Shown in pieces: positions 2,844 to 45,828 of a stretch of 64,000 nucleotides of DNA. The DNA comes from a virus (lineage: Duplodnaviria > Caudoviricetes), in IMG/VR virus record IMGVR_UViG_3300020704_000001, positions 1-64,000 of that record. The stretch is one strand, 5' to 3'. Position 1 is the first letter of the stretch. Each line of letters starts with the position of its first letter. Under the pieces are notes generated by a model. It was not told the origin of the DNA. It worked only from the letters and a program-made list of their open reading frames with translations, and did no database searches. The position numbers were made by a program, and so were the translations under genes.

Positions 2844-2847
2844 TAGA

Positions 2848-2876
2848 AGGGGAGCATAAAACTCCCCTCTTTTTTT
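2848..2876 (+). terminator. Rho-independent terminator between convergent genes
   Basis: AGGGGAG/CTCCCCT stem followed by T7. Confidence 0.8.
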
Positions 2877-3454: not shown

Positions 3455-4306
3455 TTAAAATTCGTCAATACATTCCAACAACATATTCAATCTGTGTTTG
3501 ATAAAATATTTCATTATTGCATTTTTTGAACCAGTTTGCTCTATATCATATTCTTCAACAATTTTTGATTTGATATCTTGAGGGATCATAGTCAAATCAA
3601 TTAATAATTTATTTCTTTGAATATTTCTATAATAATCAATTCCTGGATTACTAAAATCCTCAGTTAATAATTTTTCTTTAATTTTTGCTGTTAATCGTTT
3701 TTGTCTAATATTAAGAACAAATACATCATCATTTGAAAGGCAACTAGGAATACCATCACCCTTATCTCCTGTTAAAATCTTTTCTTTTAATTCTAAGTGC
3801 GGATCAGCAGATTTAACAAATACTTTCAACATAGGATTAAATTGTTTTACATTTGGATATTGATGTAATTGTTTAAAATCACCATCAGAACTAATAATAA
3901 GAACTGGTTGATGAACAGATAATCTTGGCACCAATGTTCCAATCACATCATCAGCTTCAGCACGTTCTACTTCTATCAATTTATATGAAAAGGTTTCTTT
4001 TAGATCTGATTTAACTTCTGTCATAACTTCAAATAACAATTCCCAATCAATATCAGAATTTTCTCTGCTCTTCTTTCTTCCAGATTTGTAATAAGGAAAT
4101 ACTTCTTTCCTCCAATACTTTCTAGAATCACAAGCAATTACAATTTCGTTGTAATCTCTTTTAAATTTAAAAACAATAGCTCTAATAGAATTTAATATTA
4201 GATGACGACATAAGTCCTTATCCATCGTTTTAGTTCTTGTAGAAGCCATTGCAGATTGTATACCACCAATAACAACCTGCGAAAAATCTATAATCATCAC
4301 ACCCAT
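3455..4306 (-). CDS. rnh: T4-type RNase H (5'-3' exonuclease, FEN family)
   Basis: IIDFSQ, YWRKEVFPYYK, EADDVIG, SSDGDFKQL, GDKGDGIP motifs. Confidence 0.95.
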   Translation of the reverse strand: MGVMIIDFSQVVIGGIQSAMASTRTKTMDKDLCRHLILNSIRAIVFKFKRDYNEIVIACDSRKYWRKEVFPYYKSGRKKSRENSDIDWELLFEVMTEVKSDLKETFSYKLIEVERAEADDVIGTLVPRLSVHQPVLIISSDGDFKQLHQYPNVKQFNPMLKVFVKSADPHLELKEKILTGDKGDGIPSCLSNDDVFVLNIRQKRLTAKIKEKLLTEDFSNPGIDYYRNIQRNKLLIDLTMIPQDIKSKIVEEYDIEQTGSKNAIMKYFIKHRLNMLLECIDEF

Positions 4307-4569: not shown

Positions 4570-5876
4570 AACGACTCCAATTCTTGTGTATATAAAGTTA
4601 AGTTTGTGGTTTCTAACAATTCAGCCTTTCTTTCGGATAAATTCTTTAATGAAGTTTTTAGTTGATCAATTTTATCTTTTGTCAAATTATATATTTTTAA
4701 TTCCAACATATTAATGTTAAATGATTCTTTTTTAAAGATTTCAATTAATTCTATTTTATTAGCGTTTCTAAATAAATCTACATTATTTAAATAATAATTT
4801 ATAAATCTAATCTTTTCACTTTCAGAAATAATATCTTGTTCAACAATTTCTAATAATTTAACAATTCTATCTGTATATATTTTTAATCTGAATTCAATAA
4901 AATAATCAATTATATCTCTAACATCAGTAAACTTACGAATTTTTCCAGTCTCTAACCAACAAGTTAAATTTTCTGTTATTGTTGTTGATAATTTTAATTT
5001 ATCTAATAATGTTTCATCATCTATTGTATTTAGAATGCCTCGCTGAAAATACACATCAATATCAAAACATTCTTCTGTAGAATTATCATCATAATCTTTA
5101 ATAAATGAAGCGTCAATCAGCTTATTTAAATGCTTCTTGGCATCGTCTAAATACATTCCTATAGGTAACTCTATGATTTTAATTTGCGTAGCTGAAACAC
5201 GCTGAAATGACCCTTGTATTTGATATTTCGTATCTTCTACATGTTTAACATTTCCTTTAAAATTTCTAAAGTTTGGCAACAATTTAAATTTAGAAGTAGA
5301 TTTTCCAGACAATTTTGCCTTTATATAGTCAGCCAATTCTTTATCATTCCTAGCAAGAATATTTGAAGCGAATCCAGTACCAATACCCTGTGAAGAATTC
5401 AATAAAATCCCAGGAAGAACAGGAACAAAGAATCTAGGTTCAATTCTATCATCATCTTCATACAAATATTCTAAAATAATATCATCTTCTTTTTTAAAGA
5501 ATGTTCTAAAATTTTTTGATAACTTTGTAAAAATATACCTTGGTGATGCTGGAACAGGAGATAATCTTGAACCGAATTGACCGATTGGGTCTAACCAATT
5601 CAGATTATTTGATCCAGCAAAATCTTGAGCCATATTTGATATAACATTAGATAATCCTTGTTCGCCATGATGATACTGTGAATAATTTGCAGTCAAAGAA
5701 CCTAATTGGGCAACCTTATATTCTGATGTAATATTTTTCTCAACACAAGTATATAAAACTTTTCTTTGAGAAATTTTAAGACCATCTATCAGATTCGGAA
5801 TAGACCTCTCATTATCATAATTTGCATAAGGTCTGTATTGTGTATCAAAAAACTTATTAATTGTTAATTCTTTCAT
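4566..5876 (-). CDS. 52: DNA topoisomerase II medium subunit (gp52, GyrA-like)
   Basis: IDGLKISQRK, YHHGE, GQFGSR, ASPRYI (catalytic Tyr), GIGTGF. Confidence 0.95.
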   Translation of the reverse strand: MKELTINKFFDTQYRPYANYDNERSIPNLIDGLKISQRKVLYTCVEKNITSEYKVAQLGSLTANYSQYHHGEQGLSNVISNMAQDFAGSNNLNWLDPIGQFGSRLSPVPASPRYIFTKLSKNFRTFFKKEDDIILEYLYEDDDRIEPRFFVPVLPGILLNSSQGIGTGFASNILARNDKELADYIKAKLSGKSTSKFKLLPNFRNFKGNVKHVEDTKYQIQGSFQRVSATQIKIIELPIGMYLDDAKKHLNKLIDASFIKDYDDNSTEECFDIDVYFQRGILNTIDDETLLDKLKLSTTITENLTCWLETGKIRKFTDVRDIIDYFIEFRLKIYTDRIVKLLEIVEQDIISESEKIRFINYYLNNVDLFRNANKIELIEIFKKESFNINMLELKIYNLTKDKIDQLKTSLKNLSERKAELLETTNLTLYTQELESL

Positions 5877-7750
5877 ACATTATCACCTATTCCCAACCAT
5901 TCTTTTCTTTTATCTGTCATTCCTGAATCTTTTGAAAATTGTAAATTAAATATATCCAAATCAGATAACCCTTCAGTTGTAACAACTTCTAGATTTTGTT
6001 CTAAATTTGAAAGATAATCTTTCCACTCTGAACTAGAACTTGTTCCTAATCCTTTGAAATACTTTGATTCATATTTTTCGCCTTTATGTTCATCTTTCCA
6101 TGCTTGGAAATCATCTACAGAATAAAAACTTAGTGTTTTACCTTTCATTTTAACCTTTACAATTGGTGTATTTAAAATACAAATAACCTTTAAATCAAAA
6201 AGTTCTGGCCAGAATTTATAAAATGCATTTATTAATAATCCTCGAATACCATAACCATCAAGATCTTGATCTGAGCTTATAATAATTCTTCTAAATCGAA
6301 TATCTTCAATAGATTTTACTTTCTCAGCAAAATTTAATCCAGTAATTGTCATAATATTCTTAAATTCTTTATTTTCAAGAATATCTTTTAAATCCATTGG
6401 CGTAACATTAATTGGTTTTCCTCGAAGAGGAAAACAAGCCATAGTTTTTGGATCCCTACCTGATAATAAACCAGAAAGAGCAGAATCACCTTCTGCTAAT
6501 AATAAAATAGCTTCATTTCTCTGTTTTGTTGAAGCATCATGAAACTTCTCAACTCTTTTTGGATCAGATTTGTCAAGATTTTTATTAGCCTTTCTAAGAT
6601 CAGCCATCAATTGTGCTTTTTCTTTAGCTGAAATCCAATCCAATATTGATTGAACAATATCAGTTTTTAAAATAGCTTTAATAAATTTATCAGAAACTGT
6701 CCAAGCAGTTTTCCATTCTGATGATGGAGAAATCATATTTTCTTTTGTTTGAGAAGAAAACCTAGGACGATTTAAAGTACCAAAAATAAACACTCTAATA
6801 TGATTACGAATGTCTGACGGTTTCACATCAACTTTATGTTTCTTTTTAAAGTGCTCTCGCAATTTGGCTGTAATTTGATCCATCACATAATTCACATGAG
6901 TTCCGCCTTGATATGTTTCAACAGAATTAATGAATGAAATTTGTTCAAATCCATCAGAATTTGTAATTCCAATATTCCAATTCTCATTAGAATCTGTTAA
7001 ATATTCATCAGCATACAAAGCAACATAATCATCAAACGATTTAAATTTAATTAGATCACCATTAAAATAAAATTTAATGTTAAGGTTACATGCTGCTGCA
7101 TCTATTACCTTTTTATAGATTTTATCTGTATGATCTTGATCCATTCCAGAAATCTTAAAAAACTCATAATCAGGAGTAAATGTAATTTTAGTTCCATTTT
7201 TTGTAAAATCTTTTATTTCTGGTTCTGAACGTTCCCTCATCCCATCCCAGAAATTTTGAGTTAATTTCTTTTTACCATCACACGATTCGACTTTAAAATT
7301 TGAAGATAAAACATTTGTTAAGGTACTACCAACACCATTTGTTCCAATTAAAGATTGGTCTTCATCATCATTGAAGTTAGAACCAGCCCTTAAATTAGAG
7401 AAAACAGTTTCAGCTATATAAGTTCCTGTTTGTTCATGAATTTGGACAGGAATCCCTCTACCATTATCAGAAATAGAAATTTCATCAAATGTTATATCAA
7501 CTTTAATTTGATTTAATGTTTCCGGAGCTCGTTTTCCTTCATCAATAGCATTATCAAGAATTTCAGAAAAGATTTTAACAAATGCTGGAATATAAGAAAC
7601 TTCTTTCTTTTCCATTTTATTAATTTCTTTATTTAAAATCCATTCTATAGAAGATTGTCTAGAGACAGATCCAGCGTACATTCCAGTTCTCGCACGAATA
7701 TGTGATATTTCATCAAGAACTTTATATGTTTGTTGTATATGTTTTGTCAT
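5873..7750 (-). CDS. 39: DNA topoisomerase II large subunit (gp39+gp60 in one ORF, GyrB-like)
   Basis: GHKL motifs EILDNAID, DNGRGIP, GTNGVG; TOPRIM motifs EGDSA, PLRGK, DQDLDG; YFKGLG. Confidence 0.95.
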   Translation of the reverse strand: MTKHIQQTYKVLDEISHIRARTGMYAGSVSRQSSIEWILNKEINKMEKKEVSYIPAFVKIFSEILDNAIDEGKRAPETLNQIKVDITFDEISISDNGRGIPVQIHEQTGTYIAETVFSNLRAGSNFNDDEDQSLIGTNGVGSTLTNVLSSNFKVESCDGKKKLTQNFWDGMRERSEPEIKDFTKNGTKITFTPDYEFFKISGMDQDHTDKIYKKVIDAAACNLNIKFYFNGDLIKFKSFDDYVALYADEYLTDSNENWNIGITNSDGFEQISFINSVETYQGGTHVNYVMDQITAKLREHFKKKHKVDVKPSDIRNHIRVFIFGTLNRPRFSSQTKENMISPSSEWKTAWTVSDKFIKAILKTDIVQSILDWISAKEKAQLMADLRKANKNLDKSDPKRVEKFHDASTKQRNEAILLLAEGDSALSGLLSGRDPKTMACFPLRGKPINVTPMDLKDILENKEFKNIMTITGLNFAEKVKSIEDIRFRRIIISSDQDLDGYGIRGLLINAFYKFWPELFDLKVICILNTPIVKVKMKGKTLSFYSVDDFQAWKDEHKGEKYESKYFKGLGTSSSSEWKDYLSNLEQNLEVVTTEGLSDLDIFNLQFSKDSGMTDKRKEWLGIGDNV

Positions 7751-7760
7751 ATTTTCTAGT

Positions 7761-7787
7761 AAAGAAAAGCAGGATTTTAACCTGCTT
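7761..7787 (-). terminator. Possible intrinsic terminator or attenuator upstream of gene 39
   Basis: AAGCAGG/CCTGCTT stem followed by U-rich tract on - strand. Confidence 0.5.
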
Positions 7788-7801
7788 AATTTGAATTGAG
7801 A

Positions 7802-8077
7802 TTAGAATGTCACTAAAGTATGATTAGAATAAATTTGTTTTATTGAATCAATTCTAAATGATCTCCAACCAGCATTATCAATATCCCATACTGATAACAC
7901 ATTTGGATTATCAACTTTAGATGTTTTTTCTACAGATTCAACAACTTCTTTTTTCGAAACTGGAATAATATGTTCTTGTAAAGTACAATGTAATGTACGT
8001 TCAGTCCCATCAACTTTCGTAAAAGTAATTTCTGCAGTATCATTCTTTAAGTATTTTTTTATTTGTTCTTTGTCCAT
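7802..8077 (-). CDS. Conserved T4-like SH3/WYL-like protein
   Basis: ITFTKVDGTERTLHCTL ... VWDIDNAGWRSFRIDSI signature. Confidence 0.75.
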   Translation of the reverse strand: MDKEQIKKYLKNDTAEITFTKVDGTERTLHCTLQEHIIPVSKKEVVESVEKTSKVDNPNVLSVWDIDNAGWRSFRIDSIKQIYSNHTLVTF

Positions 8078-8108
8078 AATTATATCACCAATTTCATGTT
8101 AAAAATTT

Positions 8109-8137
8109 ATTATAATATAAACCCTAATAAATGTCAA
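8109..8137 (-). promoter_or_regulatory. sigma70-type early promoter
   Basis: Perfect TTGACA-17nt-TATAAT on - strand. Confidence 0.85.
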
Positions 8138-8144
8138 CCACCAT

Positions 8145-8441
8145 TTAAAGAAGGAAAAATGCTAATACAACAAAGATCCCAAAACCAGTAATTAATTGTA
8201 GTTTACAAAATTCTGCTTTTTGATTCTTTACAGTATCTTCTTTAATTGACCTTTTCAATTCTTCTTCTGTCTCAAAAGAAGTTTCATAAGGAACAGAAGC
8301 AAAAGGATTTTTAATTTCTAAAAGTTCATCAACGACAAGTTGATTGTTTTCGTCACTAAGTTTAGATAAAATTTCTTTTTCAACATTTTCAATATGATTT
8401 TTCAATTTTGATCTATTTTTATTTGAAACTTTTAATGCCAT
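8145..8441 (-). CDS. Hypothetical protein with C-terminal membrane anchor
   Basis: Ends LITGFGIFVVLAFFLL. Confidence 0.55.
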   Translation of the reverse strand: MALKVSNKNRSKLKNHIENVEKEILSKLSDENNQLVVDELLEIKNPFASVPYETSFETEEELKRSIKEDTVKNQKAEFCKLQLITGFGIFVVLAFFLL

Positions 8442-8443
8442 AT

Positions 8444-8602
8444 TTATTGTACCTTTGGAACTATTTGTGGATTTTTATCTAAATTCGAAATAACCTTGTC
8501 CATCAATTCTTGATCTACTGGAGAAACAAATGGTTTTGGTTCAACAGCTGGCTCTTTAGGAATTTCTTGATACGCTTTTCTAATACTATCTAAAATAGAC
8601 AT
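8444..8602 (-). CDS. Hypothetical protein
   Basis: Likely start MSILDSIRKAY. Confidence 0.5.
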   Translation of the reverse strand: MSILDSIRKAYQEIPKEPAVEPKPFVSPVDQELMDKVISNLDKNPQIVPKVQ

Positions 8603-8738
8603 CTTTTCTCTTCTTTTTTTGTTGATTATCATCAGAATCAAAAAATTGATTCTTTTTCGGTTTAGAACTTTTTATTTTATGTTTTGTTGGATGAAAATTG
8701 TTGAAATCTTCAAGTAACAGATCATTATACTTTTTCAT
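8586..8738 (-). CDS. Hypothetical 50 aa protein (not in ORF track)
   Basis: MKKYNDLLLEDFNNFHPTKHKIKSSKPKK...DVYFR; fills the gap in the operon. Confidence 0.45.
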   Translation of the reverse strand: MKKYNDLLLEDFNNFHPTKHKIKSSKPKKNQFFDSDDNQQKKKRKDVYFR

Positions 8739-8745
8739 GTTGATT

Positions 8746-9174
8746 TTAACCTAACAATCCAGGGAAAATTTCTTTAACTAATTCTTCAGTCAAACCTTCA
8801 ATTTGTAAATCTTTTTGCATCATATTGAACCAAATTTGAGCTTCTTTAGGTTCAAATGATTCAAGTAGTTGAAGTAATAGATTATGTCTTTTCTTTTCTG
8901 TTAAAGAATCAGCTGTTGGATCACCTTTAAGAAACAGATAAACTTTTCTTATTTCTGATTCAATTCCAGCAATTCTAATTCCAGGAAATGTATCTGGTTT
9001 AATATAATCATCAGGAAAAGATTCTTCAACATAGAATTGATATTTTGGATCAAATGTATATTTTAGAACTTCTTTGAAGTAAGTAAATTGATTAGAAATT
9101 AGAACTTGTTTCTTTTCTTCAATTGTAGGAGCAGATTCAAATTTAGTTAAAATCTCATAAATATTAGGAGTCAT
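8746..9174 (-). CDS. Conserved T4-like hypothetical protein (DUF6433-like)
   Basis: IYEIL...LKYTFDP...LQLLESFEPKEA...LVKEIFPGLL pattern typical of this family. Confidence 0.65.
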   Translation of the reverse strand: MTPNIYEILTKFESAPTIEEKKQVLISNQFTYFKEVLKYTFDPKYQFYVEESFPDDYIKPDTFPGIRIAGIESEIRKVYLFLKGDPTADSLTEKKRHNLLLQLLESFEPKEAQIWFNMMQKDLQIEGLTEELVKEIFPGLLG

Positions 9175-9236
9175 AATTTTCTTTAATGTAGTTAATAAAA
9201 TTTTGTTGTATAGAACTTAATTTAAATTCTACTGTT

Positions 9237-9265
9237 AGTATATATTAATTTTAATTTTTTGTCAA
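9237..9265 (-). promoter_or_regulatory. sigma70-type early promoter
   Basis: TTGACA-17nt-TATACT on - strand. Confidence 0.75.
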
Positions 9266-9279
9266 TTAAAATTTAAATA

Positions 9280-9825
9280 AGGTTTGAGCGAAGCGAGGAT
9301 TTACGAAGTAAATCAAATTAGCAACAAAACTGTTCCTACGCTTCGCTCGGAACCTCTCGCTTCGCTCGATCTTTTCTTTCTTCTTCTAAATTTTAGATAC
9401 AAAATCACTCTTCCCCGTTGATTAAGAACTATTATTAAATAATTCAGGTTTCTTAGAAACTGTTCCAGGGGGTGCTGAAGCAAAAACATGACTCCATAAT
9501 TATTATAGAGTAAAATTTGAACAATATGAATTAGACCTGCTAACTGTATCGACCACAATTGCTCATTGGCCGTCTGTCTTGCATGGATTGCTCCGCGACA
9601 GAAGTTTAGGGTATTAGATACATCATTAATACAACAACGATATCACATCAGGTTATATAAAATATCATAAAATAGTGTCATCACGACAGGGTTTATGATC
9701 TCTAATTCCAAGGGTACGATTTTTATGCTGGCCTTGATTATCTCAGCTCTCGATCCTCAATGGGAACAGAGGAAGGTTTCTGTTCTTGATTCCATTTATA
9801 GTGATGGAAACCACTTTAAAATCTA
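9280..9825 (-). ncRNA. Candidate long structured non-coding RNA or origin transcript
   Basis: No credible ORF, locally raised GC, many hairpins including a GGA-GCAA-UCC tetraloop, promoter directly upstream. Confidence 0.45.
9286..9367. repeat. Nested inverted repeats containing GCGAAGC mini-hairpins
   Basis: GAGCGAAGCGAG (9286-9297) / CTCGCTTCGCTC (9356-9367) enclosing GATTTAC-GAA-GTAAATC (9298-9314) and GTTCC..GCTTCGC..GGAAC (9332-9353). Confidence 0.85.
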
Positions 9826-9862
9826 TTTAGTATAATTATATCTTGTATATCTAAAAAGTCAA
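9824..9862 (-). promoter_or_regulatory. sigma70 promoter plus CTAAATA late-type element pointing into the non-coding region
   Basis: TTGACT (9857-9862)-16nt-TATAAT (9835-9840), then CTAAATA (9824-9830). Confidence 0.65.
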
Positions 9863-10068
9863 GCACTTTTTTGTATTTTTTCTAAATATTTTTTCTGATT
9901 TTTCATAATACGTTGATTATCCATCTTTTTTAGTTCAAGATATGCTGGCATATTTTCTGTATACCAAGATTTTTTAATATAATCCCATTTCAATCCAAAT
10001 TTTTCTGCTTTTTTTCTTTGATTTTTTGTTACTGCGTATTTCAAATAAGTTCTCATAATAAATCTCAA
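9859..10068 (-). CDS. Hypothetical basic protein (DUF5710-like WD..KKSWY motif)
   Basis: KAEKFGLKWDYIKKSWY. Confidence 0.5.
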   Translation of the reverse strand: MRFIMRTYLKYAVTKNQRKKAEKFGLKWDYIKKSWYTENMPAYLELKKMDNQRIMKNQKKYLEKIQKSA

Positions 10069-10142
10069 TAATTTTGTTAAATATAAGTAAAGGTGAACCC
10101 TTTGTTATTATATATTAAATTATTTTTAGGAGAAATATTGTT

Positions 10143-10487
10143 ATGATTAAAATTAGGTCAAAAGAAAGAGATGGTAGTGAAGTTTTAGTGAATGTGAATG
10201 CTATTAATTACATTGTTCCCTCATTAGACGGTGGTAGTGTGATACATTTTCAAACATCGTTTTTGGTTGCTCTAAATTCTATAGAAGAAATTGAATCAAA
10301 AATTAAGATATCAAGAACACACATTCAAGAATTATCTCCACAATCAACATTACTAACGGAATCAATAACTTTAGATACAGAATCAGTACTTTCTGATGGA
10401 TATCCTGAGCATCTTCCGAGACTTCCAACTGGTAATGTTGATAAACGTACAAACGCATATAAAGATTATATTGCTAGTAAAGGTTGA
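10143..10487 (+). CDS. Hypothetical protein with FlbD/SwrD-like N-terminal domain
   Basis: AGGAG SD; MIKI..DGSEVLVNVNAINYI...SVIHF...SIEEIESKI. Confidence 0.5.
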   Translation: MIKIRSKERDGSEVLVNVNAINYIVPSLDGGSVIHFQTSFLVALNSIEEIESKIKISRTHIQELSPQSTLLTESITLDTESVLSDGYPEHLPRLPTGNVDKRTNAYKDYIASKG

Positions 10488-10491
10488 TAAT

Positions 10492-10755
10492 ATGCCAATT
10501 TATCCACTAAGAAATAAGGAAACAGAAGAACTATTCGAAAAAAGTATGAAAATTTCTGAATATGAACAATATTTGCTTGACAATCCACACGTTGAAAGGT
10601 ATTATACAAGTGCAGCTTCAATTGGTGATGCAGTTAGGTTAGGCATTAAACAACCCCCAGCAGACTTTCAAAAATACATAATAGGGAGGATGAAAGACTC
10701 AATTCCTGGCAATACACTTCATGATAGAAAATATCAAATACCAAAAGAGTTTTAA
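10492..10755 (+). CDS. Conserved T4-like small protein (FmdB-like MPxY N-terminus)
   Basis: MPIYPLRNKETEELFE...YEQYLLDNPH; usual position upstream of phoH. Confidence 0.7.
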   Translation: MPIYPLRNKETEELFEKSMKISEYEQYLLDNPHVERYYTSAASIGDAVRLGIKQPPADFQKYIIGRMKDSIPGNTLHDRKYQIPKEF

Positions 10756-10784
10756 TTTTATTTTCAACAACCTAAAGGACTAAC

Positions 10785-11555
10785 ATGGCTCGAAAACCTA
10801 AAATTGTAGATACACATTTTGAAGATCTTTCTCAATATTATCCTCCAGAAAAAGAAAAAGTTACTCAAGGTGCTTCTAATAGGCTAAAGTTAAGATTAGA
10901 TGATTTAAAAACTATAAAACCATTAACTGACAATCAGAAATTATTTTTTGATTCGTATTCAGTTGGCGAATATTTTATGATGCTTTCTGGATCAGCTGGA
11001 ACTGGAAAAAGCTTTATTGCTTTATACAAAAGTATCGAAGAAGTAATGGATAAAGGCAATTCCTTTAATCAAGTTTTAATTGTTAGATCAGCAGTACAAA
11101 CAAGAGATGTTGGGTTTTTGAAGGGGTCATTAGAAGAAAAAACGTCTGTGTATGAATTGCCATATGAGCAAATTGCAGATCATTTGTTTGGGAAAAAGGG
11201 GGCTTATGGGCGACTTAAAGAGCAAGGATATGTTGAATTTATTACAACAACTGCAATAAGAGGGATTTCAATAGACAATTCTATAGTTGTTGTGGACGAA
11301 TGTCAAAATATGACTTGGGGGGAGTTATCTACAGTAATAACTCGAATCGGACATAACTCAAAAGTAATTTTTATTGGGGATACTAAACAAAATGATTTAA
11401 CTAAAAAATCAAACGAAGTGTCAGGAATGTCAGACTTTTTATCTGTAGCAAATAGTATGGATGAATTTTGTAGAATTCATTTTACTCCTGAAGATATCGT
11501 AAGGTCAAGTTTAGTTAAATCGTGGATTATTGCGTGTGAAAAATTAGGATTCTAA
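10785..11555 (+). CDS. phoH: PhoH-like ATPase
   Basis: GSAGTGKS Walker A, VGFLKGSLEEK, IRGISI, VDECQN, GDTKQ, DIVRSSLVK. Confidence 0.95.
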   Translation: MARKPKIVDTHFEDLSQYYPPEKEKVTQGASNRLKLRLDDLKTIKPLTDNQKLFFDSYSVGEYFMMLSGSAGTGKSFIALYKSIEEVMDKGNSFNQVLIVRSAVQTRDVGFLKGSLEEKTSVYELPYEQIADHLFGKKGAYGRLKEQGYVEFITTTAIRGISIDNSIVVVDECQNMTWGELSTVITRIGHNSKVIFIGDTKQNDLTKKSNEVSGMSDFLSVANSMDEFCRIHFTPEDIVRSSLVKSWIIACEKLGF

Positions 11556-12215
11556 ATGTTTAACCATTGCCCTCCAATCTCATTAACAGAATATAAAAGA
11601 GTCCAAATAAATGGAAAACGACACTATCAAGTCCCAAATGGAAATTATCCATCTATAACTTCTGTTTTAAGTTTTCAAGATAATTCTTGGTTAGATGATT
11701 GGAGGGCAAAGGTTGGAGCAGAAGAAGCTGATAAAATTTCTGCTAGATCAAAAGGCAGAGGTACTAATTTACACAAAATGTGCGAGGATTATCTCAACAA
11801 TGATCCACAGTCATGTAAAATGCCTGATGCTAAAGAAATGTTTATCTCATTAAAGCCAATTTTAAATAAGATAAATAATATACACTTTCAAGAAGCATGT
11901 TTGTATAGTGATAAATTGAAAGTAGCAGGAACTGTTGATTGTATTGCAGAATATGATGGTGTTTTAAGTATAATTGATTTTAAAAATAGTCGATATCCAA
12001 AGACTTTAGATAAAATTAATGACTATTTACTACAAGAAACATTTTATTCGTTGGCATATTACGAATTATCGGGATTGTACGCTCCTCAGATCGTCACCAT
12101 AATCGCTGTTGAGAATAACGTACCACAAGTATTCATAGAACAAATTCGCCCTTATATGAAGCCTCTCGTAAGTCTGGTGAAGGAGTTCCATTCAACATTT
12201 TATAAAACTGCTTGA
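11556..12215 (+). CDS. PD-(D/E)XK exonuclease
   Basis: YPSITSVL, RGTNLH, AGTVDC, IIDFK, YLLQ..Y motifs. Confidence 0.9.
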   Translation: MFNHCPPISLTEYKRVQINGKRHYQVPNGNYPSITSVLSFQDNSWLDDWRAKVGAEEADKISARSKGRGTNLHKMCEDYLNNDPQSCKMPDAKEMFISLKPILNKINNIHFQEACLYSDKLKVAGTVDCIAEYDGVLSIIDFKNSRYPKTLDKINDYLLQETFYSLAYYELSGLYAPQIVTIIAVENNVPQVFIEQIRPYMKPLVSLVKEFHSTFYKTA

Positions 12216-12261
12216 CTTTTTTACTTTTTTATAATATACTATTATTTTTAGAGTATAAATA
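12212..12261 (+). promoter_or_regulatory. Tandem sigma70 and late promoters upstream of the cell wall hydrolase
   Basis: TTGACT-17nt-TATACT (12212-12240); TATAAATA (12254-12261). Confidence 0.75.
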
Positions 12262-12381
12262 CTAATTACAATATGGTATTGTGATCAATTTAAATTAATT
12301 AGATAGCTTTTCAAGGCAAGAAAAAGTCCTAATTTTAACGTAAGAAATATTGATGTTGATATTTCCCAAGGAGAAAGAAAG

Positions 12382-12885
12382 ATGTATTCCCAGAAGAAAA
12401 AAGCGAATAAAGTTATTATTCCTTTAGTGATGATGTTGTTAATGTCTACAACTAGTCACGCAAAAGCCCATAATCAAACAGAAGAAGAAAAAGTCTGTTT
12501 AGCAAAAGTAATTTACCATGAAGCTCGTGGCGAGCCAGAAGTTGGTAAAAGGAGTGTTGCTAAGATTGTGATAAACCGAAAACAACATAAAAGGTTTCCA
12601 AAAACAATATGCCAAGTTGTAAATCAAATTGCATTTGTTGGAAAGAAAAAAGTATGTCAATTTTCTTGGGTATGTAATAGACCAAAACTTGATGCTTCTA
12701 GCGATTCATGGGAAGATTCTCTTGCATTATCTAATGCAATTCTCAACAATCAAGTAAAATTGCCAAACTTTGGTCCAGATGTATTGTTTTTCAGAAGTAC
12801 GTCTTCAAGACAATCTTTCGGAAAAGGATACAAATTTGTATCAAGAGTTGGAAACGCTAAATTTTATGAGAAAAAAATAATTTGA
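12382..12885 (+). CDS. SleB/CwlJ-like cell wall hydrolase (Hydrolase_2) with signal peptide
   Basis: CLAKVIYHEARGE, V..VINR, FPKTICQVV, CQFSW; hydrophobic N-terminus ending SHA. Confidence 0.9.
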   Translation: MYSQKKKANKVIIPLVMMLLMSTTSHAKAHNQTEEEKVCLAKVIYHEARGEPEVGKRSVAKIVINRKQHKRFPKTICQVVNQIAFVGKKKVCQFSWVCNRPKLDASSDSWEDSLALSNAILNNQVKLPNFGPDVLFFRSTSSRQSFGKGYKFVSRVGNAKFYEKKII

Positions 12886-40064: not shown

Positions 40065-42969
40065 TACAGTTTCTTTATTAAATTACGCTAACACATTTGG
40101 TGATTGGGTTGTTACTACAAATGCATTAGGACTAGAGAATAATACTTTAGCAATTGGTAATTATCGCAAAGCAGCAGGAACATTATATTTAGAGAATGGT
40201 TCTTTAGCTCTCCAGTCTAATGGTAATGTAATTTTTGCTCAACAATTAGCAGTCCAAGGATTTGGATCTTCTCTTTATGTTCAAAATAATGCTGCTGTTG
40301 GCGGTCAAGTATATTTTACAAATACAGCATTATCGTTAACTGCTTCTGGACAAATTTTAGCTAGTGGTCCTGGAACTGGATTGATTGTTGCAAATAATTC
40401 TATATTATCTGGAAATATTAGCATAGCGGGTACAACTGTTGCTGTAGGAAACGTTAGTTTTGCAAATAATTTAGTCGTATCAAAAACAACAAATACAAAC
40501 TTTTTAAATGTATTTACAAACGCTTTTATTGGTAATAGTGCTGCAATAACAAATGGAACATACACAAATACACTTTTAGCGGCAACAAGTGTTACTACAC
40601 CAACAGTATATTCAACAACAATTTTTGCTAATACAGTGCAAGCGTATTTAAGCGTTAATACAGCTTCTGTTAATACAATTTCTCTTTCAGCTAATTCTTC
40701 TATTCTTGGCAATATTCAAGCTAATTCTTGTATAATTAATACTATTCAAGCTAATACATCGATTAATACTGCAAGCATTACTACTTCTTCGTCAATATCA
40801 ACTCCAAGGATTTCTATAAGCTCCACTATTGATGCTAATAATGCATCAGCCTATTTTGGCTCAGTACAATCTGGCCAATTTACTGTAAATGGAAATTTTG
40901 TTATCTTGGGCGCAACAGTATACAATACTAATACTTTTACATTAAGCGCAAATGCAACTACAGCAGTTACAAGTGCTTTTATTGTGAATCGAGGAATAAC
41001 TGGACAAGCTGCAGCACTTAGATGGAATGAACCAAGTAAATATTGGGACATGTTAGATGTTTCTTCTGGTTCGTATTATAAAGTATTAACATCAAATTCC
41101 ATTTCAGATTCTATTACAAGTTCAAGCACAACAAATATTGCTTCTTCAAATGCTGTTTATGTTTTAAATAATACTGTATCATCTAATATTTCTTCATTAT
41201 TTAGTTTAGTATCTACAGTTTATTCTTCAGCAAACTCTGGTATAAAATATATAAATGGAACTTCCGGTTCAGCAATACCATCATCAGGTGTTGTATCATT
41301 TTTAAGTACAAATGGTATAACTGCTACAAGTTCTAGTAACACCATAACATTTAATACCCCTCAAGACATTAGATCTACTGCTTCTCCAACATTTAATTCT
41401 TTAGTATTAACAAATGCTCTTCCAATAGCGTATGGTGGTACTGGTGCAACAAGTTCTTCTGGTGCATTAACAAATCTTCTTCCTGCGTTCACAACTGCTG
41501 GTTATGTTTTGGCGAGTGGCGGTCCAGGAAACTATTATTGGGCAGCTGGCGGAACTGGTGGTGGTGGTAGTGGTAGTGGTACGACTCCAGGAACAACTAT
41601 AAATTCGTCAAGGTTAAGTTATACTGCAGCAAATAGTGTGACACAAGTTTGGACAACACCAGCATTTACAAATACGACACAAGTTAGATCATATATTAAT
41701 GGCGTTCGTCAATTTGAATCGGAATATTCATTAAATCAATCAGCAAATACAATAACATTTTCAGTAGCACCAACTGCTGGTGATTCTATTCTTATTGAAG
41801 TTGATGGGTATTATGTGAGTCCATACTATGCAAATAATATTGCTTTCACAGTTAATAGTTCAATTTCTCCAACAGCAAATACGATCCAATTGGCTATTGA
41901 CCAATTAGTTTCTGTTGCAGCACCAAAAATTTCTCCACAACTTATTGGTACTCCATTAGCTGTTACTGCTCCAGTTGGAGTTAGTAATACAATGATTGCA
42001 ACAACTGGATTCGTATATAATGTATTAAATAATTCAAGTACTGCATTTTTAGGGACATATTTAAATTCTCAGATGCAAGGAACTTTGGCAATAGGAAATG
42101 GTGGTACAGGAACAACTACAGGGACTGGCTCTGGAAATGTTGTATTAAGTACAAGTCCAACTCTTGTGACACCAATTTTAGGGACTCCACAATCTGGAAA
42201 CTTCTCAACTGGAACTTTTACTTGGCCCACATTCAATCAGAATACTACTGGTACTGCTTCTAATATAACATCATATCCATTAAATCAATCAGTTTCTACT
42301 ACAGGCGCTCCAACCTTTGCTAATATTAAAACATCTGACGGAACTTCAACACAATTTGGGGGTTCGGCTACAACTGGGTTTTATATGGATGCCACAAATG
42401 CAGCCATTAGAACAACCTCTGCTGGTAATATCTATATGCAAAATGCTGGTGGAACATCTACTTATGGAACGTTCAATTCGGCAGGATTTAATGGAAACTT
42501 AAATGGTACTTGGTCTCAGCTTCCAGCTGGAACAACAACAAATTTTTACCAAGCAGCTGCACCGACAGGTTGGACACAACGCACAGATTTAAATGACTTT
42601 ATGATGTATATAGTTTCAGGAGCAGGTGGTGGATCAGGTGGTGTGCATTCTCCAATTACTAATAGTGTCGTTCCTGCGCATACACACTCCTTTTCAACTG
42701 GTGCGCCTTCAAACGATCATACCCATTCTGATAATGGTCACACACATAACTACGACCATGGTATGCAACAAACAGTTAACCTTTTTAATGGAGGGTCTTA
42801 TCAAGGGTTTCCTGTAGGACCTGTTGGAACATATACTACAGCCACAGGTTATGCGTCTTTAACTGGACAATCCGCTACTCACACGCATTCAGGTTCAACA
42901 GATAATGGCTCTAGCCAGACTAATTGGTCACCAAAATATTTATCTAATATAATGTGTACCAAAAGTTAA
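40057..42969 (+). CDS. Tail fibre protein 1
   Basis: ANTFGDW N-terminus, GGTG fibre repeats, APTGW collar-like motif, HTH/HxH metal-binding tip motifs. Confidence 0.8.
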   Translation: MANTVSLLNYANTFGDWVVTTNALGLENNTLAIGNYRKAAGTLYLENGSLALQSNGNVIFAQQLAVQGFGSSLYVQNNAAVGGQVYFTNTALSLTASGQILASGPGTGLIVANNSILSGNISIAGTTVAVGNVSFANNLVVSKTTNTNFLNVFTNAFIGNSAAITNGTYTNTLLAATSVTTPTVYSTTIFANTVQAYLSVNTASVNTISLSANSSILGNIQANSCIINTIQANTSINTASITTSSSISTPRISISSTIDANNASAYFGSVQSGQFTVNGNFVILGATVYNTNTFTLSANATTAVTSAFIVNRGITGQAAALRWNEPSKYWDMLDVSSGSYYKVLTSNSISDSITSSSTTNIASSNAVYVLNNTVSSNISSLFSLVSTVYSSANSGIKYINGTSGSAIPSSGVVSFLSTNGITATSSSNTITFNTPQDIRSTASPTFNSLVLTNALPIAYGGTGATSSSGALTNLLPAFTTAGYVLASGGPGNYYWAAGGTGGGGSGSGTTPGTTINSSRLSYTAANSVTQVWTTPAFTNTTQVRSYINGVRQFESEYSLNQSANTITFSVAPTAGDSILIEVDGYYVSPYYANNIAFTVNSSISPTANTIQLAIDQLVSVAAPKISPQLIGTPLAVTAPVGVSNTMIATTGFVYNVLNNSSTAFLGTYLNSQMQGTLAIGNGGTGTTTGTGSGNVVLSTSPTLVTPILGTPQSGNFSTGTFTWPTFNQNTTGTASNITSYPLNQSVSTTGAPTFANIKTSDGTSTQFGGSATTGFYMDATNAAIRTTSAGNIYMQNAGGTSTYGTFNSAGFNGNLNGTWSQLPAGTTTNFYQAAAPTGWTQRTDLNDFMMYIVSGAGGGSGGVHSPITNSVVPAHTHSFSTGAPSNDHTHSDNGHTHNYDHGMQQTVNLFNGGSYQGFPVGPVGTYTTATGYASLTGQSATHTHSGSTDNGSSQTNWSPKYLSNIMCTKS

Positions 42970-43039
42970 TTGATTATTTTATAACATATAATAAACAGCG
43001 AATGTATTAATTATTTAAAACGCTTAATAGGATCACTTA

Positions 43040-43954
43040 ATGACAACTCAAATAAAATCGTCTGTTTTAGCAACTACTGCAGTAACCCAAGGGAGTTATG
43101 GCTCAACGACACTAATTCCATCATTTACTGTTGATGCTCAAGGAAGATTACAATCTGCTACTAACAATACCCCAAGCATTTCTGCATCTTTTATAACTGG
43201 TACGCTAGCAGTCGCTTCAGGAGGTACTGGTGTTACCACTTCTACTGGCTCTGGAAGTATTGTATTAAGTACAAGTCCAACTCTTGTGACACCAATTTTA
43301 GGAACTCCAACTAGCGGTACATTAACTAATTGTACTGGTTATACTTATGCTAATTTAACAGGCACAGTTACTACTTGGAATCAGAGTACTACGGGTAATG
43401 CTTTGACTGCCACAACTGCAGCGTCTTGCTCAGGAAATGCTAGTACAGCAACTACAGCTGCCACGGCAACTACAGCATTAAATTTAAACGGCACTTGGAC
43501 ACAAATGCCAGCTGGTACAGTAACTAACTTCTTTCAGGCAGCAGCGCCAACAGGTTGGACACAAAATAATACTTATACTAACCATATGATGCGAATAGTA
43601 TCAGGTGCAGGTGGTGGTTCAGGCGGTACAATGTCGCCTATTTTAAATAATGTTGTACCTTCACATACACACAGTTTTTCTACTGGCGGAACTTCTAATG
43701 ATCACACACATTATGATTATGGACATACGCATACATACTACCAATACCCAGGTAGTGGTGCACTAACTGGATGGTCAACTCCGGGTGGCGCAGCACAACC
43801 TCAATATAACCCAAATGGTGTTACAGCCACAGGTTATGCGTCTTTAACTGGACAATCTGTTAATCACACTCACTCAGGTTCAACTGATAATGGTTCAAGC
43901 CAAACAAACTGGACTCCACAATACATAGATAATATCTTGTGCTATAAAAACTAA
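43040..43954 (+). CDS. Tail fibre protein 2 (short; tip paralogous to fibre 1)
   Basis: TVDAQGR, STSPTLVTPILGTP, AAPTGW, several HTH motifs. Confidence 0.75.
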   Translation: MTTQIKSSVLATTAVTQGSYGSTTLIPSFTVDAQGRLQSATNNTPSISASFITGTLAVASGGTGVTTSTGSGSIVLSTSPTLVTPILGTPTSGTLTNCTGYTYANLTGTVTTWNQSTTGNALTATTAASCSGNASTATTAATATTALNLNGTWTQMPAGTVTNFFQAAAPTGWTQNNTYTNHMMRIVSGAGGGSGGTMSPILNNVVPSHTHSFSTGGTSNDHTHYDYGHTHTYYQYPGSGALTGWSTPGGAAQPQYNPNGVTATGYASLTGQSVNHTHSGSTDNGSSQTNWTPQYIDNILCYKN

Positions 43955-44082
43955 GGAATAAAAATGAAAGAATTTATTACAGGCTATCAATATGGTGATA
44001 ATATGCGCTTTTCTTGTGTATATGTATTTCCTAATAATCTAGATAAAGATGAAATACACGTACCTCCAAGAACAACTTTAAT
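43919..44082 (+). repeat. Direct repeat copy A (pairs with 46460-46630)
   Basis: Fibre 3' end + SD + first 119 nt of the chaperone gene repeated. Confidence 0.9.
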
Positions 44083-44188
44083 AGCACCGCCCGATTTATC
44101 TGAAAACCAAGATGCCTTATGGGATGGTACAATGTGGTCTGCTGTAGATAAAGAACCTGTTCCACCTAACCCATATGCACCAATATGA
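43964..44188 (+). CDS. Tail fibre assembly chaperone-like protein, copy 1
   Basis: PPRTTLIAPP...WDGTMW motif; follows a fibre gene. Confidence 0.65.
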   Translation: MKEFITGYQYGDNMRFSCVYVFPNNLDKDEIHVPPRTTLIAPPDLSENQDALWDGTMWSAVDKEPVPPNPYAPI

Positions 44189-44313
44189 GCGAAGAAATAA
44201 AAGGCAGTAATATATATCGTTATGCATGTTACACAAAACTTGCTGGAATTACTCCCAGTACAGGAGAGGTAATGGACGAATCAGGTTGTAGTATAAAGGA
44301 AACATATAAATGA
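44185..44313 (+). CDS. Truncated paralogue (42 aa) of the Cys-rich gene at 46838; possibly a pseudogene
   Basis: MSEEIKGSNIYRYACYTKLAGITPSTGEVMDESGCSIKETYK vs CEEIKDAAIHRCVWYTKLAGTNPNTGEVMDEYGC; ATGA overlaps at both ends. Confidence 0.65.
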   Translation: MSEEIKGSNIYRYACYTKLAGITPSTGEVMDESGCSIKETYK

Positions 44314-45563
44314 CGACAGAAGTAGATGCATCAGTCTTAGCACCAACTGCTGTTACCATAGGAACTTATGGTGGCACAGATAGTATCCCATCGTTTACTG
44401 TCGATGCTCAGGGGAGATTAACTTTTGCAGGAAATAATACACCGAGTATACCAACTAGTCAAATTACAGGAACTCTCGGTGTTGCATCTGGCGGTACTGG
44501 TGTTACTACTTCTACTGGCTCTGGAAGTATTGTATTAAGTACAAGTCCAACTCTTGTGACACCAATTTTAGGGACTCCGCAATCTGGAAACTTATCAAAT
44601 TGTACGTTCCCAACACTTAATCAAAATACTACTGGTACTGCTGCAGGTTTAAGTGCTACATTAGCAGTCGCTTCAGGAGGTACTGGTGTTACCACTTCTA
44701 CTGGCTCTGGAAGTATTGTATTAAGTATAAGTCCAACTCTTGTGACACCAATTTTAGGGACTCCGCAATCTGGAAACTTATCAAATTGTACGTTCCCAAC
44801 ACTTAATCAAAATACTACTGGTTCATCAGCATCTGTGACGGGAACTGTTGCCGTAGGTAACGGTGGAACTGGGTCAACAACATTGACCGTTAATAACGTG
44901 CTACTAGGTAACGGCACATCAGCATTACAAGCGGTCGCCCCAAGTACATCGGGCAACGTATTAACATCAAATGGGACAACATGGCAATCAATCGCGCCAA
45001 GTGGTGGCGGTTTCACCAGTATGGTCGTCTTCACAGCATCAGGTACATGGACTATTCCTGCTGGCATTACTAAGGCGAAAGTGACTATCCAAGGGGCTGG
45101 CGGTGGTGGTGCTTCTTCTATCTCTACTTGTCAAATGGCTGGTAATGGCGGTGGCGGCGGTGCGACTATAAAATATGTAACTGGATTGACTCCAACTGGA
45201 ACTGTTGCTTGTACGATTGGCGCTGGTGGCGCTGGTGCCATTAGTGGTGCTACTAATGGTGGTGCGGGCGGGACTACATCTTTTGGCGCTTATTGCTCTG
45301 TAACTGGCGGAGGAGGCGGGGCTTCGTCAGGCATACTTGATCCAGTTTATTTCCAATTCCCGATAGGGTCAGGAGGCGCAGGAACAGGCGGGAATTGGAA
45401 CCTTACTGGATCAAGTATGCCTGGTTATTTCTACACTTACACACCGCCCTCTTTAAACTATATTTCTAGTGGCACTAATCCACTCGGTAGCGGTGGCGCG
45501 GGCAACTATTCAATTGGTACCGGTACTGCTGGAATGTCAGGTTTTATCATGATTGAATATTAA
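44310..45563 (+). CDS. Tail fibre protein 3 with Gly-rich C-terminal domain
   Basis: N-terminus paralogous to fibre 2; FTASGTWTIPAG..GAGGGG...GFIMIEY Gly-rich domain. Confidence 0.75.
   Translation: MTTEVDASVLAPTAVTIGTYGGTDSIPSFTVDAQGRLTFAGNNTPSIPTSQITGTLGVASGGTGVTTSTGSGSIVLSTSPTLVTPILGTPQSGNLSNCTFPTLNQNTTGTAAGLSATLAVASGGTGVTTSTGSGSIVLSISPTLVTPILGTPQSGNLSNCTFPTLNQNTTGSSASVTGTVAVGNGGTGSTTLTVNNVLLGNGTSALQAVAPSTSGNVLTSNGTTWQSIAPSGGGFTSMVVFTASGTWTIPAGITKAKVTIQGAGGGGASSISTCQMAGNGGGGGATIKYVTGLTPTGTVACTIGAGGAGAISGATNGGAGGTTSFGAYCSVTGGGGGASSGILDPVYFQFPIGSGGAGTGGNWNLTGSSMPGYFYTYTPPSLNYISSGTNPLGSGGAGNYSIGTGTAGMSGFIMIEY
44493..44822 (+). repeat. Intragenic repeat, 186 nt period (62 aa)
   Basis: 44493-44636 nearly identical to 44679-44822. 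Confidence 0.9.
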
Positions 45564-45576
45564 GGAGAAAATATAA

Positions 45577-45828
45577 ATGAAAGCATTAATAAGCCCTATT
45601 GAACCTGTAAACAATTCTGACGGCACAACGGGCTATCGAGTTGCACAAGTTGAAGAAATAACTTTTGATGTAGCTGAACCATTATATTGGCTTGACTGCG
45701 ATGCCAACGTGATAGCAGATATTTACTATTTTGATACTACATCTAATAATATATTAAAAAAGCCTGTTATTGCTCATACTAATGTATCAGGCACACAACC
45801 AATATCAACTGGAACACAGGCATTCTAA
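45577..45828 (+). CDS. Hypothetical fibre-associated protein
   Basis: AAGGAG SD; MKALISP..YRVAQV..FDVAEPLYWLDC. Confidence 0.6.
   Translation: MKALISPIEPVNNSDGTTGYRVAQVEEITFDVAEPLYWLDCDANVIADIYYFDTTSNNILKKPVIAHTNVSGTQPISTGTQAF

Follow-up and report, generated by a model that had tools for sequence, protein, structure and literature searches.

The locus and its promoters

The stretch of DNA analysed here, referred to as the window, comprises 64,000 nucleotides (nt), positions 1-64,000 of the IMG/VR record IMGVR_UViG_3300020704_000001. The parent record is 80.6 kb long with a completeness estimate of 49%. The element in question is the putative gene for a structured non-coding RNA of ~550 nt, read from the minus strand at 9283-9828. 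It lies between a small open reading frame (ORF) of 69 amino acids (aa) upstream and a gene for a DUF6433 protein downstream, and the features of the locus are collected in Table 1. Related metagenome and virus loci are designated by L followed by a number.

Two sigma-70-like promoters on the minus strand, ~570 nt apart, precede the RNA and the DUF6433 gene, respectively, and both had been predicted in an earlier, sequence-only reading of this DNA. They are the best two among 17 sites in 8700-10500, where shuffles give 9.9 +/- 3.9 sites at a score of at least 9/12. A promoter-like site is found at the equivalent place in L169 (TTGATA-17-TATACT, 10/12) and in L087 (TTGACT-17-TACACT, 9/12), and L087 also has a counterpart of the DUF6433 promoter (TTGACG-17-TACAAT). 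The CTAAATA motif, to which the earlier reading gave a part in firing the transcript, is present but not enriched, the window having 20 matches where shuffles give 23.3 +/- 4.7. It was dropped as a late-promoter mark because it occurs at chance frequency in the window.

The same reading described the region as ORF-free, as the largest non-coding gap of the genome and as richer in GC than its flanks, all of which hold within the window. The sole frame in the RNA stretch starts with TTG and runs for 81 codons at 9313-9558 (-), with no PHROG match and no conservation in L169, and TAA, TAG and TGA all occur in each of the six frames. With this frame set aside, 9175-9858 (684 nt) is the longest ORF-free stretch within the window. 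GC content is 0.345-0.38 over 9300-9799 compared with 0.22-0.29 in the flanks, and across the 500 nt downstream of the RNA promoter it is 0.31-0.38, again above the flanks. The divergent strand switch placed at ~10.1 kb is also found, between ORFs at 9859-10068 (-) and 10143-10487 (+).

Table 1. Features of the RNA locus and adjoining genes (positions in the window)
Feature	Position	Strand	Description
Downstream gene, DUF6433	8746-9174	-	142 aa; PF20025, 9.3e-13; phrog_461; synteny anchor
Promoter of DUF6433 gene	9237-9265	-	TTGACA-17-TATACT, 11/12
Terminal long hairpin	9283-9371	-	outer stem GAGCGAAGCGAGG (9367-9355) with CCUCGCUUCGCUC (9298-9286); -36.8 kcal/mol, z = -3.57
3' domain	9404-9487	-	GUUUUUG, stem UUCAG/CUG(G)AA round C-rich loop CACCCC, two hairpins, AACGGGG
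3'-domain hairpin GAAUUAUU/AAUAGUUC	9445-9438 with 9433-9426	-	3 pairs changed on both sides
3'-domain hairpin GUUUC/GAAAC	9460-9456 with 9452-9448	-	predicted
Hairpin ACUCUAUAAU/AAUUAUGGAGU	9491-9511	-	9-bp stem of the sequence-only reading
Hairpin GGUCGAUACAGUUAG/CUAAUUCAUAUUGUUC	9519-9554	-	13 pairs: 1 two-sided change, 1 one-sided (G-U to G-C)
GNRA-capped hairpin UCUG...CAGA	9573-9602	-	inner GGA-GCAA-UCC at 9594-9585
Central conserved block	9610-9755	-	87-97% identical to L169
Central nested helix GGAAUUAGA/UCUAAUACC	9709-9701 with 9618-9610	-	predicted
Central nested helix AUCAUAAA/UUUAUGAU	9699-9692 with 9671-9664	-	predicted
Long irregular hairpin	9660-9626	-	predicted; inside central block
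Helix UGUC/GACA	9688-9685 with 9679-9676	-	predicted
Long-range helix UCAAGGCC/GGCCAAUGA	9737-9730 with 9571-9563	-	predicted; closes central domain
5' domain	9756-9828	-	hairpin UUCCAU/AUGGAA (9809-9804 with 9795-9790) and hairpin CAGA/UCUG (9782-9779 with 9770-9767)
CTAAATA motif	9824-9830	-	present; no weight of its own
Sigma-70-like RNA promoter	9835-9862	-	-35 TTGACT 9862-9857, 16-nt spacer, -10 TATAAT 9840-9835; 11/12
Upstream 69-aa ORF	9859-10068	-	weak DUF5710 likeness, PF18974, E = 4e-4, under Pfam cut-off

Related loci, covariation and presence in RNA libraries

Relatives were collected with PhoH and topoisomerase II as anchors, giving 110 loci, and by DUF6433 protein alignment, giving 80 metagenome loci, 44 of which were examined for the DUF6433 neighbourhood. 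The flanking ORFs, used as single-protein queries in IMG/VR, retrieved no relatives. Where the DUF6433 protein is at least 63% identical, the gap to the divergent neighbour spans 550-900 nt and again has few ORFs. These gaps are sorted by blastn into sets without mutual match: the window type, made up of the window and L169; group 1, with nine distinct sequences that are 84-98% alike; group 2, consisting of L085 and L086-like sequences; and group 3, with L170 and L171. All cassette types lie behind a TTGAC-type promoter, as judged by eye for groups 2 and 3. L012 has only 136 nt in the slot, holding just two divergent promoters, and the cassette is absent; in L085, L095/L097 and L169 the slot also holds extra ORFs. 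The cassette is accessory and, as L012 shows, dispensable, occupying a variable slot of this phage lineage.

The copy in L169, the single close homologue of the window type found, is 77% identical to that of the window over 523 nt. Conservation is concentrated in blocks, with 30-nt segments at 87-97% identity over alignment columns 91-235 (~150 nt), against 76% DNA identity for the DUF6433 gene next to it. The high-identity blocks alternate with hairpins whose two arms change in matching fashion. Between the two copies the RNA body has seven indels, of 1, 1, 2, 5, 1, 1 and 5 nt, none of them a multiple of three, which argues against coding. One of these lengths, a 1-nt indel, falls within the central block (alignment column 119), so that no reading frame is shared with L169 there.

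Compensatory changes are also seen against L169. In the consensus fold of the two copies, which is derived from the same two sequences on which it is scored, all 111 pairs are retained in both and 14 are changed on both sides. Shuffling the partners gives 6.9 +/- 1.8 two-sided changes, with none of 500 shuffles reaching 14, and sliding the partners by 1-3 columns leaves 0-2. When the window is folded alone, pairing survives in 8 of the 15 double changes found in L169 (null 3.2 +/- 1.6, maximum 8 in 500), a real but modest signal, as expected for a 450-nt single-sequence fold. One case is the hairpin at 9573-9602, in which UCUG/CAGA becomes CCUG/CAGG in L169 and the cap GGA-GCAA-UCC becomes GGA-UUCG-UCC. 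This swap from a GNRA to a UNCG loop reads as tetraloops solely on the minus strand of the window. The consensus fold is also more stable in the sense direction than in the opposite one (-69.8 vs -57.3 kcal/mol). The minus strand is favoured, from the direction of the promoter, the tetraloops and this consensus energy.

Covariation extends to the syntenic regions collected from other relatives. The nine-sequence alignment of group 1 has 171 predicted pairs, 15 of them changed on both sides by changes that stem from three or four lineages only; no shuffle in 500 reaches 15 and slid partners give 0-1. This alignment also contains an invariant stretch of 140 columns. Within group 2, a comparison of L086 with L085 finds 11 of 74 pairs changed on both sides.

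A relationship between the window type and group 1 was explored with covariance models that cover the 3' domain only, R1 built from the window type and R2 the reverse, from group 1. With R1, 8 of 15 group-1 copies are the best non-self matches, at the syntenic place, with 15-19 bits (E = 0.05-0.54; noise from 11 bits). With R2, L169 comes first at 19.9 bits (E = 0.036). By eye, the two types carry motifs in the same order, namely an AAACC(C)UU loop, AUCGUACC and GUUUUUG...CACCC...CAGUUU...AACGGGG.

No known RNA family accounts for the cassette. Rfam 15, whose families include GOLLD, ROOL, group I and II introns, RNase P, tmRNA, 6S, OLE, raiA and HEARO, gives no match at gathering score in the whole window or in 12 related loci. 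At E <= 10 there are only chance-level, unrelated matches, four in 9100-10150 (two of them overlapping the RNA), six in L087 and four in L169. ARAGORN detects no tRNA or tmRNA gene in the window or in 10 related loci. The earlier statement that the region is not a tRNA, tmRNA, RNase P or intron agrees with these searches. Among 50,697 phage records, blastn returns one 66-nt chance match to the window region and none to group 1. An exact 17-mer of the window finds no further copy in IMG/VR, and 20-mers of the window and of group 1 are absent from prokaryote genomes (one per species). A degenerate pattern of the 3' domain matches 24 loci in IMG/VR, 13 of which are known group-1 contigs; one of the 11 others, L254, has a weak partial R1 match (13.9 bits) and was not taken as a member. 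A palindrome pattern scan gave 56 loci, most of them GC-rich and unrelated, with only further group-1 copies being useful. Within a limited literature collection, no matching earlier description was found.

The stretch is also present in RNA libraries. Six of the 24 listed sequencing runs are lake metatranscriptomes, which hold 0.29-0.37 of its sampled words; 14 DNA runs hold all sampled words and may include the source sample. The contigs of four of the six RNA runs, chosen because they hold the stretch, were compared with 7000-12500. Three of the runs have one contig each, from 9539/9540 to 9788/9795 and at least 99% identical, and the fourth has contigs at 9543-9721 and 9196-9414 along with two PhoH pieces. 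In the flanks (7000-9195 and 9796-12500) three of the four runs have no contig and the fourth has the PhoH pieces, this missing cover being non-evidential. Strain variants may have broken the assembly at the shared contig ends (9539-9543 and 9788-9795). The contigs show that the stretch is present in lake RNA libraries and carry neither strand nor ends.

Predicted architecture and genomic setting

The minus strand of 9270-9830 folds at -137.7 kcal/mol (z = -3.05), with none of 100 shuffles as good; for the plus strand z is -1.74 and 5 of 100 shuffles are as good. All six stems listed in the sequence-only reading are present in the sequence and reappear in folds, GAACAGA/TCTGTTC (9764-9785) among them. 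For GCTG/CAGC (9727-9747), which is likewise in the sequence, the consensus fold differs and has the adjoining AAGGCC (9737-9730) paired with GGCC at 9571-9563.

In the 5' domain, the two hairpins have 3 and 2 pairs, respectively, changed on both sides in L169, and the CAGA/UCUG hairpin carries the conserved loop AAACCUUCC. A group 1 hairpin with the loop AAACCCUUAU and covarying stems (alignment columns 83-100) resembles it by eye. The helices of the central block are termed predicted since most of their pairs never vary. The long-range helix has 7 pairs, of which 1 is changed on both sides (U-A to C-G). At the counterpart of 9491-9511, L169 has CUCACCUA...UAGG-C-UGAG, an assignment made by eye as MAFFT misaligns the arms out of register. 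The stem round the C-rich loop of the 3' domain is kept as different pairs across types, being UUCAG/CUG(G)AA in the window, UACUG/CAGUA in L169 and AGCUG/CAGUU in group 1 (by eye). The G run of AACGGGG (9416-9413) can pair with CCCC at 9472-9469 of this loop. These two features make a pseudoknot in the modelled 3' domain possible.

The cassette is closed by a long hairpin that directly precedes the promoter of the DUF6433 gene, an order also seen in L087. The 11-mer GAGCGAAGCGA forms the hairpin arms in the window, L169 and groups 1, 2 and 3, and all cassette types end in this way. A second copy of GAGCGAAGCG lies within the hairpin at 9348-9339; with at most one mismatch the window has three copies, all at 9286-9367, compared with 0.25 in shuffles. 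Exact GCGAAGC is found three times in the same interval, CCGAAGG occurs in relatives, and in the first 111 related loci examined the heptamer clusters solely beside the DUF6433 gene. In L088 and L089 the arms are changed together, to GAGCAAAGCGA/UCGCUUUGCUC. The GCGAAGC core there becomes GCAAAGC with a compensating change, so that the long stem is kept but the mini-hairpin sequence is not.

The boundary is enlarged in L169, where perfect inverted arms of 39 bp starting with GAGCGAAGCGA lie at L169:2085-2441, between the RNA and the DUF6433 gene. They enclose ~280 nt of AT-rich DNA with repeated short words (TAACATC / GATGTA), and L168 looks similar. This insert looks iteron-like or like a miniature inverted-repeat transposable element.

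The carrier is an uncultured, AT-rich, freshwater lineage of T4-like phages. Its T4-type genes in the window include RNase H (3458-4300), the topoisomerase II large subunit (5873-7750) and PhoH (10785-11555). No close cultured phage was found, the topoisomerase being less than 50% identical to its best GenBank phage match and the DUF6433 protein ~30% identical to its best matches. The runs containing the RNA stretch originate from freshwater samples. The low GC suggests a host among streamlined freshwater bacteria. The DUF6433 protein has a weak likeness to a DNA-ligase N-terminus. The 69-aa ORF is co-oriented with the RNA, and its stop codon overlaps the -35 element of the RNA promoter. A small ORF weakly resembling DUF5710 (KKxGxxWxxxxKxWY) precedes the cassette in the same orientation in the window and group 3, and not in groups 1 and 2; the look-alikes of the 69-aa ORF, recognised by eye, lie at ~487-665 in L170 and ~497-670 in L171.

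More distant phages are arranged differently. Where the DUF6433 protein is at most 57% identical, a co-directional ORF abuts its gene in 37 of 37 loci examined; this ORF is ~285 aa long in distant phages and encodes a T4-type RNase H in 3 of 3 tested. In L180-L247 (e.g. L190:1644-2504) the end of the RNase H gene overlaps the DUF6433 gene by 4 nt. In the window lineage topoisomerase II lies between the two genes, which are separated by 4.4 kb.

In two independent relatives a homing-endonuclease-like ORF is inserted just ahead of the RNA promoter, in one case at L095:646-1233 (also in L097) with a NUMOD3 motif (PF07460, 1e-5), and in the other at L169:641-1579 with T5orf172/MUG113 (1.8e-5 and 3.1e-5). 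The invariant RNA gene may be the target at which they cut.

Further features of the window lie outside the slot. A 91-aa protein at 7802-8077 (-), 1.2 kb away from the RNA and conserved in relatives, has a WYL_2 Sm-like SH3 beta-barrel domain (PF10902, 8.7e-15); it is a possible RNA-binding partner. What looks like an intrinsic terminator, a clean GC-rich hairpin with a T-rich run behind it (AGAGGGGAG...CUCCCCUUCU), closes a minus-strand gene at 2845-2872 (-), adjoining a 240-nt ORF-poor stretch (2635-2874). The region 42091-46981 contains families of direct repeats (130-260 nt, 60-97% identical) with GGT/GGC-rich runs of 9-nt periodicity and a GC content of 0.39-0.43, which are probably repeated modules of fibre-like structural genes.

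Interpretation and comparison with known systems

The locus at 9283-9828 (-) is likely to be the gene for a stand-alone structured RNA of ~550 nt, belonging to a family outside Rfam 15 and acting in trans as a folded molecule. A stand-alone structured RNA was also the core of the sequence-only reading, and it is strengthened by a promoter of its own that is kept in relatives, by covariation, by the tetraloop swap and by presence in RNA libraries. Host RNA polymerase would start at the near-consensus promoter, with the 5' end near 9828. The transcript would then fold into a 5' hairpin domain, a central domain that a long-range helix closes, and a 3' domain with a predicted pseudoknot, several of the helices being backed by compensatory changes and the remainder predicted. 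At its 3' end the RNA may end in, be trimmed to or be protected by the terminal hairpin with GAGCGAAGCGA arms, which would shield that end. The invariant stretches between the covarying hairpins are taken as a putative tertiary core working in trans.

Several observations weigh against this interpretation. With one close homologue only, each compensatory change is a single event, and the consensus fold was scored on the sequences that produced it. When the window is folded alone, 31 pairs break in L169 (null 39 +/- 3.8). On the opposite strand 7 of 14 double changes stay paired, about equal to the minus strand, so covariation does not set the strand, and the two strands of group 1 fold equally well (-108.0 vs -109.5 kcal/mol). 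The 3' end has no canonical terminator, with neither a U tract nor a terminator-like site on the minus strand. Assembled contigs show presence rather than strand, ends or level, and DNA carry-over is possible. R2 gives the window copy 10.9 bits (E = 1.9, rank 4), below a spurious match at 2528-2597 (19.3 bits), and neither R1 nor R2 matches groups 2 or 3; the case for homology of the window type with group 1 is no more than suggestive. Complementarity of the RNA to the rest of the window does not go beyond 12-14 nt (E >= 0.1), and an antisense target within the window was dropped on this ground.

Partner and function of the RNA are inferred only. The leading one of three possibilities, put forward tentatively, is that the RNA binds a host or phage protein as a decoy or scaffold. 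An RNA-only assembly like ROOL or GOLLD and a ribozyme both seem unlikely, to the same degree. The protein-binding role is favoured over the other two because of the accessory nature of the cassette, its early-type promoter and the sharp differences between close relatives. A broader and rather doubtful proposal is that the RNA founds a new class of large phage RNAs with tertiary structure, a pseudoknotted core and an early promoter, diversifying in one hot slot. Such an RNA would act itself, by catalysis or self-assembly, or as a decoy for a host factor, and the adjacent homing endonucleases would target its invariant sequence. The slot members would be the window type, group 1 and perhaps groups 2 and 3. 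If true, the class would be the RNA counterpart of the accessory protein genes that are shuffled between PeSL-like (promoter-early stem-loop) boundaries in T4-type phages.

The locus is of interest in several respects. Large non-coding RNAs with complex folds are rare, and to our knowledge very few have come from T4-like phages. New classes of large RNA have so far been informative, yielding ribozymes, riboswitch-like sensors and RNA cages. Here the RNA is more conserved at the nucleotide level than the adjoining gene, in an uncultured AT-rich freshwater lineage. In relatives the slot holds other structured RNA cassettes or none, which suggests that the 'hyperplastic' regions of T4-type phages trade RNA as well as protein genes. 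The RNA is also short enough for synthesis, probing and imaging, so that its fold and activity are directly testable.

The second half of the sequence-only reading, which likened the transcript to R-loop primers, fares worse. In that account the RNA would prime an origin through a persistent R-loop, as in ColE1 RNA II and T4 oriF/oriG, and GCGAAGC-type hairpins with the AT-rich tract at 9175-9285 would mark the point at which the primosome is loaded or DNA synthesis begins. A structured preprimer of this kind would be a first for T4-like phages. The layout does follow this scheme, running from a promoter through ~550 nt of folded RNA and GC-rich hairpins to an AT-rich tract (GC 0.22) in the vicinity of replication genes (RNase H and topoisomerase II), and L169 has its ~280-nt AT-rich insert with repeated short motifs between 39-bp inverted arms. 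GCGAAGC and CCGAAGG, heptamers reported from phage and plasmid priming sites in a review (PMC13037366), occur here and in relatives. The locus is at a divergent transcription switch and a local cumulative GC-skew minimum, and T4 oriE, oriF and oriG are described near such switches, oriE with an early promoter (PMC3016281). The skew, however, does not discriminate, since its minimum at 8-10 kb falls at the gene-strand switch and is exceeded in depth by another at 42-44 kb. T4 R-loop origins need a promoter and an adjacent A+T-rich unwinding element but no specific sequence (PMC3016281), whereas the RNA promoter is followed by ~450 nt of GC-enriched sequence with blocks of 87-97% identity and covarying hairpins. 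The close relative L012 lacks the whole cassette (136-nt gap), groups 2 and 3 have cassettes without recognisable likeness to the window type, and L088/L089 keep the long stem while losing the mini-hairpin to a compensated GCAAAGC. An origin primer is therefore quite improbable. A structured untranslated region (UTR) of the neighbouring mRNAs is about equally so. On that view the RNA would serve as 3' UTR of the 69-aa ORF transcript, as a leader or platform for processing of the DUF6433 gene, or both, and processing or attenuation would take place at the hairpin. In favour are the shared orientation of the 69-aa ORF, whose end falls within the RNA promoter, and its look-alike in L170/L171, which directly precedes the cassette with no convincing separate promoter (by eye). 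There is also no canonical terminator between the RNA and the DUF6433 gene, and the RNA-library contig at 9196-9414 runs from the 3' domain over the hairpin and the DUF6433 promoter. Against this, the RNA and the DUF6433 gene each have their own 11/12 promoter, in keeping with the earlier remark that the region is not needed as a leader; group 1 retains a promoter ahead of the cassette without the 69-aa ORF, L012 has the same neighbours without the cassette, and a 450-nt core with invariant blocks would far exceed the needs of known leaders.

Less probable still is an element acting at the DNA level, in which the GAGCGAAGCGA inverted repeats and the promoter form a recombination or boundary module, or a nuclease target, and the RNA body is a passenger. 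The 11-mer arms are the sole feature common to all four cassette types, the slot is variable (differing cassettes, none in L012, extra ORFs in L085), and homing-endonuclease-like ORFs adjoin the cassette in L095/L097 (NUMOD3) and L169 (T5orf172/MUG113). The stem-loop with an early promoter is also the layout published for PeSLs, which flank variable ORFs in T4-type phages (PMC4122927). A passenger would not be expected to hold 87-97% identity beside a gene at 76%, nor to show compensatory changes in its hairpins, and GAGCGAAGCG occurs at one locus in 64 kb, whereas PeSLs are repeated genome-wide (PMC4122927). This account explains the boundary and not the body, and is compatible with a stand-alone RNA. 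The least credible alternative is that the slot holds a gene in decay, or one for a small protein that escaped recognition, possibly in another genetic code. It can point to the 81-codon TTG frame at 9313-9558, and the slot could hold the remnant of the ~285-aa gene that precedes DUF6433 in distant phages (RNase H, 3 of 3 tested). However, the ORFs here have no PHROG match, all three stop codons occur in all six frames, indels relative to L169 break the frame, and conservation follows helices rather than codons. Searches with RNase H recover the intact gene at 3458-4300 but, at E <= 10, no match in 9175-9900. The coding, recoding and RNase H-remnant readings were rejected on these grounds. The stand-alone RNA remains the preferred interpretation, without a leader role, a known family or the R-loop primer.

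Comparison with characterised origins brings out the differences further. The T4 origins oriF and oriG comprise ~100 bp, with a promoter and a directly downstream A+T-rich unwinding element, and use MotA middle promoters, oriE having an early one (PMC3016281). The window locus resembles them in having a promoter, here sigma-70-like (9862-9835), that fires into the locus, and in its placement at a transcription and skew switch, as for oriE, oriF and oriG. It differs in that the AT-rich tract is ~550 nt from the promoter rather than within ~100 bp, and in that the transcribed part is constrained in sequence, with blocks at 87-97% and covarying hairpins. ColE1 RNA II is a promoter-driven, untranslated preprimer of ~550 nt with the antisense RNA I gene over its 5' part; it forms a persistent hybrid with DNA and is cut by RNase H at the origin. 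The similarity lies in the length, the lack of translation and a folded body followed by an AT-rich tract. The plus-strand candidates for an antisense promoter here, at 9488-9516 and 9795-9822, are weak, both scoring 9/12.

At its boundary the cassette is likened to two short DNA motifs. GCGAAGC, GCGAAAGC and CCGAAGG mini-hairpins are reported at phage and plasmid priming sites (PMC13037366), and exact GCGAAGC is present here with CCGAAGG in relatives. The heptamers of this locus are nevertheless embedded in long, perfectly paired inverted repeats, and in L088/L089 the compensated GCAAAGC keeps the long stem only. PeSLs, composite terminator/promoter motifs of T4-type phages, are short, are repeated many times through one genome and combine a stem-loop with an early promoter (PMC4122927). 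By analogy, the cassette is bounded like a PeSL, with the stem-loop at 9371-9283 followed by the sigma-70-like early promoter at 9265-9237. Like a PeSL, the boundary borders indels and replacements, the slot holding four cassettes, extra ORFs or nothing (L012). Unlike PeSLs, the GAGCGAAGCG arms are confined to this locus in 64 kb, the stem is long (arms of 13-39 bp enclosing 40-280 nt) and the cassette closed by it is an RNA rather than an ORF.

Among large RNAs, GOLLD and ROOL form homo-oligomeric assemblies of RNA only and are associated with tRNA genes in phage and prophage DNA. The window RNA differs from them in its neighbourhood, with no tRNA gene in 64 kb or in 10 related loci, and it matches none of the Rfam models even at E <= 10. 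The two families are described as large 'ornate' RNAs, often borne by phages or prophages, in a recent preprint (bioRxiv 10.1101/2024.12.08.627333). The window RNA is like them in its size of several hundred nt, its phage carrier, the lack of an ORF and a function that is not established. It also shares with GOLLD and ROOL the many hairpins interleaved with invariant stretches and the occurrence in lake samples.

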